In this document: positions 2,762 to 6,615 of the stretch, piece after piece
Layout of the letters: the number at the start of each line of letters is the position of its first letter
Numbering within the stretch: position 1 is the stretch's first letter
NCBI GenBank assembly: GCA_963775555.1
Contig: CAVZJJ010000002.1
Coordinates: forward strand, 578,889-642,888
Length of the DNA: 64,000 nucleotides
Source: an uncultured Bacteroidota bacterium
Lineage (GTDB): Bacteria > Bacteroidota > Bacteroidia > AKYH767-A > 2013-40CM-41-45
Direction: 5' to 3'
Position numbers and translations under genes: made by a program
The notes under the pieces: generated by a model
What the model saw: only the letters and a program-made list of their open reading frames with translations
What the model was told of the DNA's origin: nothing
The model's database searches: none

Positions 2762-4231
2762 TTATATTTTTTCAAGTACTTCCAGCAGGCGTACCATCGC
2801 CAGAGTATCCATTTTGCAATAGGCCAGAAGGTTTTGTCGGATGTCATCCTGATTTGCATTTACATCGAAAATCAGTTGTTCGAATGCAAGACTTGCAGAC
2901 GATCCATCGCCGATTTCCAGGGTATCGTAATTCAAGTCCGGAACCAGTGCAGGCAATACAGCTTTTATAGAATACGATCCATTCATGGAAGGAGTATAGT
3001 ACCATCCTTTCATAAAGGGAGGCATCAGATCTAAAAGACGATCGATGCGTTCTTCAATATCATTTTGATATTTAGGAAAATCCCGGGCAATGGCGTTGAG
3101 GATAGATTTTTCAAAACTCATGTTATAGGTGAGTATTCTGCCGGAAGATGAAGTGTTTTCCAACAGTTGTTCAATGAAAGGAATTCTGGGATCTCCTTTT
3201 GGCCGGGCTAAAAATTCAGTATGTTTCAGTGAGGCATTTTTTGTTTTTTTGAAATGCAAAGAATACTGAAATGGAATTTGCTGGTAGGGTCTGCTTTTTG
3301 AATACAATGGAATGGCAGCCTGAAAAGTTTCAAAGTCCATGAAGTACAATGGGTAAGAGAGATCTTTCAAATAGTTGCGAAGAGAGGGCCGGTCAATTGT
3401 ATTTTTCTTTTTCAAATGGCTGTCGATCTGCACCTGTTGGTATTCGTTGAGTGCCATGTCTTCAGGAAGATCTTCAAATCGCAATATTCCTTCTTCATAC
3501 AATTCAAATTTTTTGTTTGCCCGAAGGCGTGAGATAGAGAAGACTGAAGGTACAGGAATATGTTTCCAGCAATGTTCGATGAAGTCGCAGGAGTAAGGGT
3601 CTGAACAATGCGGACCAATGTCGACCACCGGTTCTTTTTTTAATTGGAGCATTGTTTTTAATTCGGAGATCTTTTCCTGAACGAAATCTTGTTGTTCAAG
3701 GGCTTCCATTTTTACGGATTCAATCGAAAATAATTCTTCGAGAACAATTGATTTTTTCCGGATGTATTCATTGTTCAGGTGAACGATAAACAGGTCGGCC
3801 AGTTCAATTCCTGACTGTGTTATAACATGGTATTGAAGGGCGGCATCAAGGATGTTCACTTCTTTAATGTTGGTTGAGCTTTTAACTTCATAAGCTTTCC
3901 AGCGTCCATTTCTTTTTACTAAAATATCTACTGCAGCCAAAACGCCATTGTATTGAAATGCCGCTTCGTAAATAATTTTTTCCCCCTGTTTAATAAGTTC
4001 CTTCGTGTATAATACAGATTTCGCATATTCGAAGGGAGTATCGGGGGATGCATCCACACCACCCGGAAAAAGGTCTCTGGCCAATTGCCCCACGGAAGTT
4101 CCCCGGTCGAAAACGGCTTGCTGTTGAGCGGATATTTCTCCTGCCAAATCGCGGCGGAATTTATAGAAATACAAACGTTTAGGGCATTGACATCCATATA
4201 AAAATGTGGATTTAGAGAGGACGTGACGCAT
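2762..4231 (-). CDS. DUF2779-type protein: N-terminal Cas4/AddB-like PD-(D/E)xK nuclease with Cys cluster, plus a C-terminal DEDD-like exonuclease-like half
   Basis: 489-aa ORF. An N-proximal Cys pair (YGCQCPKRLYF) plus C-x5-C-x5-C (HCSDPYSCDFIEHCW) bracket a D...E-x-K core (AAVDILV...KAYEVKSS). The C-terminal half carries YFMDFETF, YNMSFEKS and AYCKMDTLA, which resemble ExoI/II/III (DEDDy) motifs. The overall N-terminus matches my memory of the DUF2779 family. Confidence 0.7.
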   Translation of the reverse strand: MRHVLSKSTFLYGCQCPKRLYFYKFRRDLAGEISAQQQAVFDRGTSVGQLARDLFPGGVDASPDTPFEYAKSVLYTKELIKQGEKIIYEAAFQYNGVLAAVDILVKRNGRWKAYEVKSSTNIKEVNILDAALQYHVITQSGIELADLFIVHLNNEYIRKKSIVLEELFSIESVKMEALEQQDFVQEKISELKTMLQLKKEPVVDIGPHCSDPYSCDFIEHCWKHIPVPSVFSISRLRANKKFELYEEGILRFEDLPEDMALNEYQQVQIDSHLKKKNTIDRPSLRNYLKDLSYPLYFMDFETFQAAIPLYSKSRPYQQIPFQYSLHFKKTKNASLKHTEFLARPKGDPRIPFIEQLLENTSSSGRILTYNMSFEKSILNAIARDFPKYQNDIEERIDRLLDLMPPFMKGWYYTPSMNGSYSIKAVLPALVPDLNYDTLEIGDGSSASLAFEQLIFDVNANQDDIRQNLLAYCKMDTLAMVRLLEVLEKI

Positions 4232-4272
4232 TCGAATAAAATAAGAGTTTCAGTAAAGATAGAAGACCTGAA

Positions 4273-4289
4273 CGCAGTCTATCTGCGCA
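4273..4289 (-). promoter_or_regulatory. Operator-like motif CGCAGTCTATCTGCGCA upstream of the DUF2779 nuclease gene
   Basis: Lies 42-58 nt upstream of the nuclease ATG (4231). It matches the reverse complement of 5404-5420 at 15/17 positions, including an exact 11-mer, CTATCTGCGCA. It is internally palindromic (CGCA-N7-TGCG). An additional imperfect AGATAG half-site sits at 4257-4262. Confidence 0.45.
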
Positions 4290-4378
4290 AGGACAGGAGA
4301 AAGAAGAAAAGGAGATTTGTCTTGAAAGCACAATGCGGAGGGAGGATTGCTTCAAAAGGAGCAATTCGATGCTTGTAT

Positions 4379-5389
4379 TTATGTGGTATATTTTTTCATT
4401 GCTTTTTTGAGTGTTTCCATTATTTCGTTTTTGAGTTGCGTTGGTTTAATGACTTTCACATTTTCGCCGTAACTCAGAATTTGCATGGTCAGTTCAGTTG
4501 AAGGGATCACATCGATGCAAATTCGAAATTCCTTCTCATTGTCTTTTAGGACTTTTTGAGTATGATGGATGGGCTGTGCTTTGATATAACGGCCTTCAAG
4601 TGGACTAAAGGAAAGTTCCACTTTTACAGGAATCAGGTCGTTGACGGTAATTCCAAAAGAGTGATAAAAGAATTTTCTTGCATCAAAATCTCTTTTCTTT
4701 TCGAAGGCCATTCTGGTTATCTGCAAATCACGGATTCTGTCGAGACCGAAGGTAAGGATCCTCTCATGGATAGGTGAGTAGCCGGTGAGATACCAGCGGT
4801 TTCTGTATTCACGCACGAGATAAGGGTGCAGCTTATGTTGATTGGTTTTTTCTTTTGTATAGTTATAGTATTTAAAATGGATTTCGACATGGTCGGTGAT
4901 GGAGCGTAATATTTTTTCGAGGTGATCAGTCCCTTCGGAGTAGGAAGGTCGTTCTACCTGGATGAAGTCTGTAATTTCTGTCCCATACAAGGAGCGGCTG
5001 ATCTGAACAGCCTGCAAGAGGCGACCGATGGTGTTATCAAATTGGCGGAGAATGGGGAAGTCTTTGAATTGCCGTAAAAGACCCACGGCGAATTCCAGTG
5101 AATAGAGATCATCCTGCTTCAATGGCAACTTACTTATAGAAAAGTCGGGATCCGAATAATAATATCCTCTTCGGGTTTTATGATAGCAAATGGGAGCCTG
5201 GAAATTGAGTCCCTCATCAAAACGCATAGCATAAATGTCTTTTTGCATCGTGGATTCAGAAATTCTTTTCCCCAAAAGATCCTCACATTTTTCTGCCAGT
5301 TCTTCCAGTGTTGGAAAGGGTTTTTGCCTGTTTTTTAAAGCTTCGTCGATCAGGCGGTAACGGGTATATGCTTCTTTGTTCTTTGGCAT
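4379..5389 (-). CDS. WYL domain-containing transcriptional regulator (wHTH - WYL - WCX architecture)
   Basis: 336-aa ORF. It has an N-terminal wHTH-like segment (TRYRLIDEALKNRQKPFPTLEELAEKC), a central WYL signature (HPYLVREYRNRWYLTGY) and a C-terminal extension typical of PafC/BrxR/CapW-like regulators. Confidence 0.8.
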   Translation of the reverse strand: MPKNKEAYTRYRLIDEALKNRQKPFPTLEELAEKCEDLLGKRISESTMQKDIYAMRFDEGLNFQAPICYHKTRRGYYYSDPDFSISKLPLKQDDLYSLEFAVGLLRQFKDFPILRQFDNTIGRLLQAVQISRSLYGTEITDFIQVERPSYSEGTDHLEKILRSITDHVEIHFKYYNYTKEKTNQHKLHPYLVREYRNRWYLTGYSPIHERILTFGLDRIRDLQITRMAFEKKRDFDARKFFYHSFGITVNDLIPVKVELSFSPLEGRYIKAQPIHHTQKVLKDNEKEFRICIDVIPSTELTMQILSYGENVKVIKPTQLKNEIMETLKKAMKKYTT

Positions 5390-5403
5390 AAAATATTTAT
5401 TAG

Positions 5404-5420
5404 TGCGCAGATAGGTTGCG
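5404..5420 (-). promoter_or_regulatory. Operator-like motif (minus-strand reading CGCAACCTATCTGCGCA) upstream of the WYL regulator gene
   Basis: Ends 14 nt upstream of the WYL ATG (5389). It is a near-identical copy (15/17) of the motif at 4273-4289, in the opposite orientation, and has the same CGCA-N7-TGCG palindromic frame. Confidence 0.45.
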
Positions 5421-5864
5421 TGCCTGGGTCTGAGATTTGCAAAATGATTAATGATTGTCTTACGAACTGAATAATTCTATACAAGCACTGATTGAACGAA
5501 GATACTAAGGTTTTGTGAGAGACCTTTCGCCGGTTAGAATTCATCCCGCGAAGGAGTAGAAAATATTATTTCATATCTAAAAATCGACAGAAGAATGAAT
5601 TTACAGGGTTTCAATAAGTTTTTATCTAAAGAGTGCCGGGTGTTCCAATTCGTTGATTTTATTCTTTATTGTGGAATTCAGGACCAGCTCCAGTGTAGTG
5701 TATTCCATCCCTGCTTTTTAAGGGCGACGAAGGTTATGATGCTTTGCCAATACCCGGTTTTATTACAACCTGCAAGGGGATATACATATACGAATGCGCA
5801 AGAATGAGCGAATGAAAGGATTGTGTCAGAGGGCTAAGCCCGGCTTATATTTCGATAATTACGG

Positions 5865-5894
5865 AAGAAGATGGGATTATATTCTCATCTTCTT
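5865..5894. terminator. Hairpin (9-bp stem AAGAAGATG / CATCTTCTT, 12-nt loop) followed by a T-rich tract on the + strand
   Basis: Stem arms are at 5865-5873 and 5886-5894, followed on the + strand by TTCTTGAATTGCTTTT. It lies 35 nt downstream of the stop of the minus-strand YdcF gene. The U-tract, however, is on the + strand, where no gene is annotated upstream. Confidence 0.35.
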
Positions 5895-5928
5895 TTCTTG
5901 AATTGCTTTTAGAGCAGATAAACAAAGA

Positions 5929-6615
5929 TCAACGATAAGCATCCTTGTCGAGTTGTAAGCCACGTGTCCCTTTAAATCGCTGCCAGAAGGTTTCCCTTTC
6001 CATGATGGAGATAAAATCTTTGTCGAAAGCATCTTCAGAATTTATTTTCGGGTTGATCATTTTTGGTTCGAGTGAACGAAGAGTATCATATACTATTGGA
6101 ATCAGTGCTACGTCTTCACTAACCCGTTTTCTTGTAAACCGACGGAGAAGCTTTGTTTGAAATGGGTCGGAGGCAAGCGCCATTTTTCGGAACCCGAGTT
6201 TCCAGGCTTTCTTGTATGAATAGTAGATGTTTTCAGTACTATGTTCGGCTTTGGTTTCCGTGAATATATTTTCTTTCGGTATGCCAATTGCTTCAGCAAA
6301 CATTGCCATCACCTTTCCCTCGTAATATGGAGTGTATACAGCGGATCCGGAATACATGATGTTTTTGGCTATACCTTTTTCAAATAAATATTTTGACCAG
6401 TAGACTCGCGCTTTCATAGTTGGGGTCCAGGTTCCTCCTTCCAGAGGGACTCCCGGAACTACAATTATGTCGTATTGTTCAGTCATGGATTGGGTCAAAA
6501 GTTTCCTGCATGTACGCGATGTAAAAGAGCAGGACACGAAAACAAGGAAGAAAAGGCCAAGAAATATTTTTGATAATAATGACAACATAGTTTGGAGAGC
6601 AGGATGATTCAGCAA
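5929..6615 (-). CDS. YdcF/DUF218 family protein (ElyC/SanA-like), membrane-anchored
   Basis: 228-aa ORF with an N-terminal TM/signal segment. The DUF218-like core reads YDIIVVPGVPLEGG...IMYSGSAVYTPYYEGKVMA...TKAEHSTENIYYS. Confidence 0.7.
   Translation of the reverse strand: MLNHPALQTMLSLLSKIFLGLFFLVFVSCSFTSRTCRKLLTQSMTEQYDIIVVPGVPLEGGTWTPTMKARVYWSKYLFEKGIAKNIMYSGSAVYTPYYEGKVMAMFAEAIGIPKENIFTETKAEHSTENIYYSYKKAWKLGFRKMALASDPFQTKLLRRFTRKRVSEDVALIPIVYDTLRSLEPKMINPKINSEDAFDKDFISIMERETFWQRFKGTRGLQLDKDAYR

Follow-up and report, generated by a model that had tools for sequence, protein, structure and literature searches.

In the genome of an uncultured Bacteroidota bacterium (assembly GCA_963775555.1, contig CAVZJJ010000002.1) the gene for a regulator of the WYL type, which we call P0001, is flanked by two copies of a palindromic motif, and behind the copy at its downstream end follows a gene encoding a fusion of two nucleases. 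The stretch analysed comprises 64,000 nucleotides (nt; positions 578,889 to 642,888, forward strand) and is referred to as the window; coordinates without a locus number are those of the window. We consider it probable that the two motifs, here named WYL-boxes A and B, are operators for a homodimer of P0001, and that P0001 would be a damage-responsive activator which works at hybrid promoters. An earlier note on this DNA had pointed out both copies and had taken them for the sites of an autoregulated repressor which also controls the adjacent nuclease gene; the model implied by this is that of BrxR and CapW. The positions of all features are given in Table 1.

On the plus strand positions 4273-4289 read CGCAGTCTATCTGCGCA, and the reverse complement of 5404-5420 reads CGCAACCTATCTGCGCA. 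The two copies are identical at 15 of 17 positions, they share an exact 11-mer (CTATCTGCGCA) and both have the frame CGCA-N7-TGCG. All this could be reproduced from the letters of the window as the earlier note had described it, and the same is true for the distances, one copy being located 14 nt from the ATG of the WYL gene and the other 42-58 nt before the ATG of the nuclease gene. A search of the 64 kb with the pattern CGCANNCTATCTGCGCA, which allowed up to 2 mismatches, returned exactly two matches, namely the two copies. Shuffled sequences contained 0.07 matches on average and none of 100 shuffles reached two, so that the assumption of an unlikely chance match was justified. With a weight matrix derived from sites adjoining orthologous WYL genes in other genomes, the copy at 5404-5420 scores 30.1 bits and the copy at 4273-4289 scores 25.0 bits, and the third-ranked match in the window reaches 10.1 bits. 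Because there are only two matches and the next matrix score is that low, the motif is not a dispersed repeat within the window.

For phylogenetic footprinting 80 loci encoding orthologues of P0001 were sampled, each from a separate GTDB species (loci are cited by L numbers). A site of at least 15 bits is present within 3.5 kb in 50 of the 80 loci and within 300 bp of the ends of the WYL gene in 39 of them, which ties the motif to the WYL family. A specific operator close to the own gene and in front of target genes, which in the homodimeric members is a palindrome of about 15-21 bp, is a trait of this class of regulators; such a site was found for 50 of the 80 orthologues, and binding to it is predicted. 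The outer three positions on each side of the half-sites are complementary in 47-86% of the sites, and the motif is therefore written as a 21-bp palindrome, CTR-CGCA-N7-TGCG-YAG, as would be expected for a dimer. The core CGCA-N7-TGCG has an asymmetric centre and reads nnnCGCA(A/G)ATA(S)(R)(Y)TGCGnnn in the direction of the driven gene. Its orientation is nearly uniform: all 26 sites that lie at most 300 bp upstream of WYL orthologues and 15 of the 16 sites just downstream of them point away from the WYL gene (41/42).

The spacing was derived from 61 sites which were collected without requiring a TTTG or a -7 box, the only set that is unbiased in this respect. Past the 21-mer, a TTTG begins at offset 13 in 37 of these sites and at offset 14 in three more (40/61 together); in the opposite orientation no TTTG offset exceeds 3 sites. 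The downstream consensus at the sites is nAnnTTTG, which we take to be the Bacteroidota -7 box TAnnTTTG. In this phylum the -7 box is the element on which promoters mostly rely. From the -7 box it is about 20-25 nt to the start codon, and mostly 33-41 nt separate the end of the 21-mer from the ATG. The position in which the TTTG of a -33 element would be expected, 19-21 nt upstream of the -7 box, is taken by the WYL-box, and a -33 element is missing. Fixed spacing, one orientation and no upstream element are the traits of the hybrid promoters of the activators DriD, PafBC and DdaA, and all of them were found here. We predict a composite promoter unit consisting of the WYL-box, N11 after TGCG and TAnnTTTG, of which the box would form one half.

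A variant of the motif occurs in a clade of Flavobacteriales/Cryomorphaceae (L020, L035, L040, L045, L046, L050, L051, L054, L059, L060, L064, L075, L079), in which CGCA-N7-TGCG is replaced by CGTA-N7-TACG. The regulators of these loci have an LYGSS-G insertion, and their recognition helix reads STIEKD compared to STIQKD or RTxxxD in the others. The pairing of box and helix may reflect a co-evolution of operator and protein, which is confounded by phylogeny; since the CGTA group is a single clade, the correlation is not independent evidence.

P0001 is a member of the HTH-WYL-WCX family (HTH, helix-turn-helix), and DriD and PafBC are the nearest to it. Pfam assigns a WYL (8.9e-14) and a WCX domain (5.8e-10), and the AlphaFold2 model (pLDDT 82) consists of three N-terminal helices with a beta-hairpin wing, a beta-rich WYL domain and the WCX domain, so that the domain layout of the PafBC/DriD class is complete. 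Hundreds of full-length relatives are present in Bacteroidota. In Foldseek comparisons with the PDB the top match is DriD (5.8e-15), followed by PafBC (1.4e-14), CapW (2.5e-9) and BrxR (9.1e-9), and the alignments to DriD and PafBC cover the full length. A profile built from 19 family members gave PafBC (1.1e-16) and DriD (1.3e-13) ahead of CapW (9.3e-6) and BrxR (6.7e-5) when compared with the PDB, the CapW/BrxR matches spanning 9.3e-6 to 3.8e-3. According to a profile alignment, combined with the description of DriD (PMC9186387), the ligand-pocket residues Y168 and Y192 of DriD correspond to Y174 and Y200 in the P0001 family, and W206 is replaced by a phenylalanine.

The locus is syntenic in the window, L200 and L205, with genes for a DEAD helicase, a DUF218 protein, the WYL regulator, the DUF2779 nuclease and a cargo protein of the type IX secretion system. 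PADLOC assigns only its generic WYL and Cas4 models in the window and finds no defence system otherwise, and neither BREX nor CBASS genes are found among the window neighbours of P0001 with Pfam and PADLOC. The genomic context typical of BrxR and CapW is therefore missing, since no defence system is nearby and the locus represents a syntenic chromosomal context.

Upstream of the nuclease gene the minus strand reads TTGCGCAGATAGACTGCGTTC, aggtcttc, TATCTTTA, 22 nt and ATG, which places the start codon 38 nt past the end of the 21-mer. Box A is predicted to be the upstream half of a composite promoter for the nuclease gene, and the transcription start site (TSS) would be located at about 4246-4249. 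All relatives in which the WYL and nuclease genes stand in tandem (L108, L001, L002/L200, L205; 60-75% identity of the nucleases) have kept box A and the -7 element. An alignment of the WYL-nuclease intergenic region of five relatives leaves as invariant only CGCA, ATA, CG, the TTT of the -7 box and the ATG; as box and -7 element are the sole conserved columns, the predicted control of the adjacent nuclease gene has gained in support. The AGATAG at 4257-4262, which had been regarded as an additional half-site, is indeed present; it overlaps the -7 box of the nuclease gene and is better read as part of it than as a third half-site. Between the stop codon of the WYL gene and box A (4291-4378) no convincing intrinsic terminator was found (fold z = -0.96). 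Because there is no significant structure in this interval, read-through from the WYL gene is possible, and the nuclease gene may also be transcribed in this way.

On the plus strand box B (GTGCGCAGATAGGTTGCGTGC) is followed by ctgggtct and GAGATTTG. Box B is kept in L001, L002, L108 and L205; GAGATTTG does not vary between the window, L001 and L002, and L108 has a TTTG at equal offset. By the same composite architecture box B is predicted to be the upstream half of a promoter which fires in the direction of the plus strand, away from the WYL gene. The gap of about 0.5 kb between the DUF218 gene and the WYL gene (5421-5928) is poor in open reading frames (ORFs) and carries the box-driven promoter at its left end. 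The hairpin located in this gap has a folding energy of -17.8 kcal/mol (z = -5.3), and none of 200 shuffled sequences folds as well. A plus-strand transcript of about 450 nt would be expected, because the box-B unit is followed by an ORF-poor gap ending in a hairpin and a U-tract. An ORF of 70 codons (5595-5807) was considered as a gene, and as the divergent product, and was rejected, as tblastn and a comparison of small ORFs revealed no conservation in L001, L002 and L108. No small ORF downstream of box B is shared across the clade, and no known non-coding RNA was recognised by Rfam in 4150-6000 at E<=1. The region 5421-5928 may represent an unannotated non-coding RNA or a purely regulatory transcript acting by interference.

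The promoter of the WYL gene would have to overlap the box-B region. A candidate -7 box, TCATTTTG, adjoins the divergent -7 box back-to-back, the two being linked by the palindrome TTTGCAAA; L108 has this palindrome too, and in L001 and L002 it is imperfect. If TCATTTTG is used, box B would be located in the 5' leader of the WYL gene, and a negative autoregulation by occupancy is plausible for this reason. The TATYTG of the motif itself was discarded as -7 or -33 element of the WYL gene, since its spacing is unfit and the conserved -7 box has the opposite orientation. The direct autoregulation that the earlier note had assigned to the copy near the WYL gene is not supported, because the unit points in the opposite direction, as do nearly all sites near WYL orthologues. 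At the window locus autoregulation can only be indirect, via the predicted overlap of box B with the 5' region of the WYL gene.

Table 1. Features of the WYL regulator and nuclease locus in the 64-kb window.
Feature	Position	Strand	Description
Nuclease gene	2762-4231	minus	489-amino acid (aa) fusion of two nucleases; predicted target of box A
Predicted nuclease -7 box	4254-4261 (4261->4254)	minus	TATCTTTA; starts 12 nt after the TGCG of box A
WYL-box A	4270-4290	minus	21-bp predicted operator TTGCGCAGATAGACTGCGTTC; core CGCA-N7-TGCG 4273-4287; 25.0 bits
Regulator gene P0001	4379-5389	minus	336 aa; winged HTH, WYL and WCX domains
WYL-box B	5403-5423	plus	21-bp predicted operator GTGCGCAGATAGGTTGCGTGC; core 5406-5420; 30.1 bits; 14 nt upstream of the WYL ATG
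Predicted divergent -7 box	5432-5439	plus	GAGATTTG; starts 12 nt after the TGCG of box B
Candidate WYL-gene -7 box	5440-5447 (5447->5440)	minus	TCATTTTG; proposed from sequence only
Putative box-B transcript	5444-5900	plus	about 450 nt; no conserved ORF; only the first ~30 nt conserved
Hairpin	5863-5896	plus	stem of 14 bp, then UUUUCUUG; likely 3' terminus of the divergent transcript

To see which genes follow the box elsewhere, metagenome contigs were scanned for CGCARATASRYTGCG-N15-TTTG, which yielded at least 119 stretches, and the downstream genes were clustered and checked against Pfam. The extended palindromic arms are present in nearly all of these stretches. The box precedes genes for the RNA ligase RtcB at least 20 times, the WYL gene itself at no fewer than 19 loci, Ro60/TROVE-vWA genes at least 7 times, and genes for RecA and for T4-type RNA ligases at least 3 times each. 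The WYL proteins among them are 28-34% identical to P0001 over the full length and are mostly Bacteroidales-like 'MPANKN...' proteins. Among the matches listed, the box also precedes genes for RlaP, an SMC_N/RecN-like and a GyrB-like protein, a PIF1 helicase, a conserved protein of 138 aa and an AAA_21 ATPase. In the genome set it is found in front of genes for UvrD-like helicases (L009, L015, L016), tetratricopeptide repeat proteins and several small uncharacterised proteins. The targets related to damage and repair (RecA, RecN-like, UvrD-like, PIF1, GyrB-like) were all seen in other loci, and the window shows only the nuclease gene and the putative box-B transcript. A dedicated pair of regulator and effector, as it had been proposed, is too narrow a view, because the box precedes many unlinked repair genes and DUF2779 genes which are not adjacent to a WYL gene lack it.

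Several box-driven loci are remarkable for other reasons. On two metagenome contigs the box promoter is located directly upstream of Cas9 (L121 4226-5203) and of type I-B Cas8b/TM1802 (L101 7573-9450), which would parallel the control of CRISPR-Cas by DdaA. Four transposase genes of the IS1595 family (L090, L094, L161, L181) have a box promoter about 30-35 nt upstream of the ATG; this suggests either a damage-linked control of the transposase or the capture of a promoter by the insertion sequence. In box-driven rtcB loci (L129, L137, L187, L192) a conserved leader of about 120 nt (tactgtcgaaaggctgaacgcgttcacgaacgcc...) is found, with a G+C-rich hairpin and then a T-run, and tRNA genes are located beside the operon. 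At L093, L157, L173, L176, L178, L194 and L199 the box promoter is followed by about 1 kb without a convincing ORF and then by 3-8 tRNA genes on the opposite strand. The idea that a Y RNA is encoded downstream of the ORF-less metagenome boxes was dropped, as Rfam reports only tRNA arrays there and no Y RNA at gathering score.

By analogy, P0001 probably works most like DriD and DdaA. DriD, which acts in the SOS-independent DNA damage response of Caulobacter crescentus, is a homodimeric HTH-WYL-WCX protein, as we assume for P0001; it is the best full-length structural match and shares the two tyrosines of the ligand pocket. According to PMC12392091 it is an activator with the operator CGAC-N7-GTCG, a palindrome that likewise spans 15 bp, and recA, didA and its own gene are under its positive control (PMC9186387). 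The differences are an identity of about 20% only, the replacement of the four arginines which contact single-stranded DNA (ssDNA) in DriD, and the other phylum with -10/-35 instead of -7/-33 promoters. Unlike those of DriD, the box targets reported here are mainly RNA-repair genes (RtcB, Ro60, RNA ligases), and their activation is a prediction. DdaA from Moraxellaceae has the 15-bp operator CGWCA-N5-TGWCG, and under its activation stand recA, gyrB and further repair genes, restriction-modification systems and CRISPR-Cas (PMC12392091). It resembles P0001 in being one WYL protein whose operator is a palindrome of 15 bp, and in metagenome loci the box described here is found in front of genes for RecA, a GyrB-like protein, Cas9 and Cas8b. 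DdaA differs in motif and phylum, and the accessible text of PMC12392091 reports no RNA-repair targets for it; the comparison with DdaA refers to operator and regulon.

PafBC is the top profile match of the family (1.1e-16) and is known from actinobacteria for 'sigma adaptation' at RecA-NDp promoters. These promoters have no -35 but a PafBC-specific -26 element at fixed spacing to the -10, and PafBC inserts between sigma region 4 and the DNA (PMC8635444). Hybrid promoters without an upstream element are common to both systems, the PafBC regulon is one of DNA repair, similarly to the repair genes behind the box in other loci, and if the -7 box corresponds to about -11 to -4, the proximal TGCG of the box would be located at about -26 to -23, close to where PafBC has its own element. 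However, PafBC is formed by two HTH-WYL-WCX units, as a heterodimer or as a fusion, and its motif is not a palindrome, whereas here a single protein of 336 aa and a palindrome are found; the spacing is N10 to the -10 in the one case and N11 to the -7 box in the other, and the link to the proteasome locus is absent here. BrxR and CapW, repressors of BREX and CBASS, are similar to P0001 in their domain layout, in a palindrome near the own gene and in the regulation of an adjacent nuclease or defence operon. They differ in that their matches are weaker, no BREX or CBASS is nearby and the box is phased with the promoter; P0001 is a conserved, syntenic and phylum-wide orthologue in contrast to the passengers of defence islands. 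RtcR is a sigma-54 activator with a CARF domain which controls the rsr-yrlBA-rtcBA RNA repair operon of Salmonella; this operon is induced by nucleic-acid damage (PMC7790460). It is only a functional analogue, a ligand-sensing activator in front of RtcB and Ro60 genes, as protein family (AAA+ enhancer-binding with CARF), sigma factor and DNA site are all unrelated.

The sites with their conservation, their constant spacing and orientation to the -7 box, the association with the WYL family, the genes behind the box in other loci and the structural kinship with DriD and PafBC are observed. Binding by P0001, its action as an activator and not as a repressor, the kind of signal, the TSSs and the negative autoregulation are inferred, and they may be combined as follows. 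The regulator, loaded with a signal of nucleic-acid damage on its WYL/WCX domains, would bind the box as PafBC, DriD and DdaA bind their sites, and would then allow the housekeeping RNA polymerase to start at promoters without an upstream element. The form of box recognised would be CTR-CGCA-R-ATA-SRY-TGCG-YAG, with TAnnTTTG 11 nt after TGCG. Box A would switch on the Cas4-like/DEDD double nuclease and box B a plus-strand transcript, apparently non-coding. The active regulator would probably lower its own transcription by occupying the shared region of box B and the 5' end of the WYL gene.

Compared with a repressor of the BrxR/CapW kind, a damage-responsive activator seems fairly likely to us, because the core spans 15 bp, the box is strictly spaced and oriented with respect to the -7 box, no -33 element is present and the targets are of the repair type. 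Several points weigh against it. The -7 box of the nuclease gene in the window has TTTA and not TTTG, the nuclease appears to be a target in the clade of the window only, and box B is without a product recognisable by ORF comparison or Rfam. In a search of the public RNA and DNA runs none was found that covers this stretch. The tally of the regulon comes from anonymous metagenome contigs and from a pattern which already required the TTTG. The ssDNA-contacting arginines R176, R178, R204 and R207 of DriD are replaced by N/K, H, L and G, and because of this the ligand, and even the allosteric logic, may differ from those of DriD. The WYL repressors BrxR and CapW also bind palindromes in promoters beside nuclease or defence genes, and with a box centred near -30 an occlusion of RNA polymerase is just as conceivable. 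The same sites and the same protein could thus be read as a repressor, which we hold to be unlikely: the resting dimer on the box would block RNA polymerase until a nucleic-acid ligand releases it, the nuclease gene and the divergent transcript would be derepressed, and P0001 would repress itself via box B in its own leader. The domain layout shared with BrxR/CapW (Foldseek E of about 1e-8 to 1e-9) and the lost arginines are compatible with this, as is the position of the box, from which a bound dimer close to the -7 box could occlude the polymerase, box B ending 14 nt from the WYL ATG. In addition, the -7 box is the main determinant of the promoters in this phylum, so that a promoter without -33 could be active alone. 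Yet repressor operators need no single spacing and orientation across unrelated targets, and 40 of the 61 unbiased sites agree to 1 nt, with the asymmetric centre (ATA) constant in its direction relative to the -7 box. By E-value the protein is, in sequence and in fold, nearer to DriD/PafBC by 5-8 orders of magnitude, and the generic WYL and Cas4 models reported by PADLOC belong to a syntenic chromosomal neighbourhood and not to a defence island. Fixed spacing and orientation, the missing -33 and the closer relationship make the repressor of the earlier note the less likely reading.

It is also conceivable that another factor, such as an alternative sigma factor or a different regulator, recognises the box and that the WYL genes merely belong to its regulon. 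The position of the Bacteroidales WYL gene downstream of the box is what a mere regulon member would show, and a fixed spacing to the -7 box is typical of two-part sigma promoters as well. We regard this as very unlikely, since a two-fold symmetric site of 21 bp with covarying outer arms points to a dimeric HTH protein and not to a sigma -35, and the 15-bp span of the type CG..-N-..CG is found again in the operators of DriD and DdaA, which are homologues. Moreover, in 39 of the 80 species sites are close to the WYL gene whatever gene is its neighbour, and the CGTA-N7-TACG variant tracks the STIEKD helix clade, with the confounding by phylogeny mentioned above. One could also see in the two copies a match by chance, or what is left of a dispersed or mobile repeat without regulatory role, for example inverted repeats flanking the WYL gene, and could refer to their inverted arrangement with one copy on each side of that gene. 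This view is effectively refuted already: only 0.07 matches are expected by chance, there are no more copies in the 64 kb, the flanks are not repeated except for promoter elements, and many loci hold a single copy. Furthermore, the box is kept across species while the surrounding intergenic DNA is not, and the chromosomal synteny is conserved.

The activator reading may be extended beyond the window. We tentatively propose that the WYL family could be the master activator of a phylum-wide Bacteroidota regulon for nucleic-acid damage, comprising RNA repair, DNA repair and CRISPR-Cas, with a mechanism similar to sigma adaptation on sigma-A promoters which have a -7 box and no -33. Its possible members, an equally tentative list, would be RtcB, Ro60, RNA ligases and RlaP; RecA, RecN-like proteins, UvrD, PIF1 and the DUF2779 double nuclease; and CRISPR-Cas genes. 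In view of the lost DriD arginines and of the predominance of RNA-repair genes among the targets, what is sensed could be damaged RNA, such as the ends of cleaved tRNAs, and not ssDNA. PafBC-like proteins are described in reviews as conserved in Bacteroidetes, and full-text searches in the literature library used revealed no motif or regulon described for the PafBC-like WYL proteins of Bacteroidota. The sensing of and the response to nucleic-acid damage are poorly defined in this phylum, including the dominant gut Bacteroidales. The unit of box and -7 box would provide a sequence tag by which the regulon can be predicted in any Bacteroidota genome, and a regulatory link from the RNA-repair operons with RtcB and Ro60 to DNA-repair genes. 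If true, activation at hybrid promoters as known from PafBC would also apply to a phylum whose housekeeping sigma factor is different. The essential parts of this wider reading are the phylum-wide regulon, the action at hybrid promoters of the Bacteroidota sigma-A and possibly an RNA ligand.

In the predicted target of box A an N-terminal Cas4/MGME1-like PD-(D/E)XK domain, in which four cysteines are invariant, is joined to a C-terminal DUF2779 domain (Pfam 4.6e-43), a predicted DEDDy-type 3'-5' exonuclease of the RNase H-like fold. In 20 homologues C16, D102, E115, K117, Q133, Y134, C209, C215 and C221 are invariant, and the hallmarks of the Cas4 family (D...ExK, QxxxY, one N-terminal and three C-terminal cysteines; 4Fe-4S type) were all found in the N-terminal half. 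Likewise, the DUF2779 half has the acidic residues of ExoI, ExoII and ExoIII that are the DEDD hallmarks, with D299 and E301 (ExoI DxE), N370/E374 (ExoII) and Y471/D475 (ExoIII Yx3D) being invariant, and it is a putative exonuclease. PADLOC reports a Cas4 match (6.8e-9). Foldseek assigned to the AlphaFold2 model (pLDDT 92.7) the Cas4 structures 4r5q (1.7e-4) and 7mi4 as well as MGME1, and, weakly, 3'hExo and the exonuclease domain of DinG. DUF2779 was classed in the exonuclease clade F.17 earlier, and its fusion to a PD-(D/E)XK domain was noted (PMC3985635). As a CRISPR context is absent, the protein is not a Cas4 of CRISPR adaptation. For this widespread and little-characterised nuclease box A would offer a first, testable regulatory context.

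A DUF2779 gene is found nearby at only 4 of the 80 loci of WYL orthologues, and the WYL regulator is therefore no dedicated partner of the nuclease. DUF2779 was also rejected as a general member of the regulon, since 6 of the 8 DUF2779 loci fetched do not adjoin a member of this WYL family, and no box scoring 11 bits or more is found upstream of them. At L032 the DUF2779 and WYL genes are divergent, and their intergenic region contains no WYL-box. It contains (2300-2370) a near-perfect palindrome of about 50 bp made of CGCAAAG repeats (cgcaaaggcgcaaagaacgcaaagatatttcttcgcgttctttgcgcctttgcg), which was considered as a WYL-box and is unrelated to it. The DUF2779 genes which are not linked to a WYL gene (L203, L204, L202, L207) adjoin genes for a RecQ-like helicase together with DprA, for RmuC, for HNH/PDDEXK_4 proteins and for an MmeI-type restriction enzyme, all of which are contexts of DNA recombination, repair or defence.

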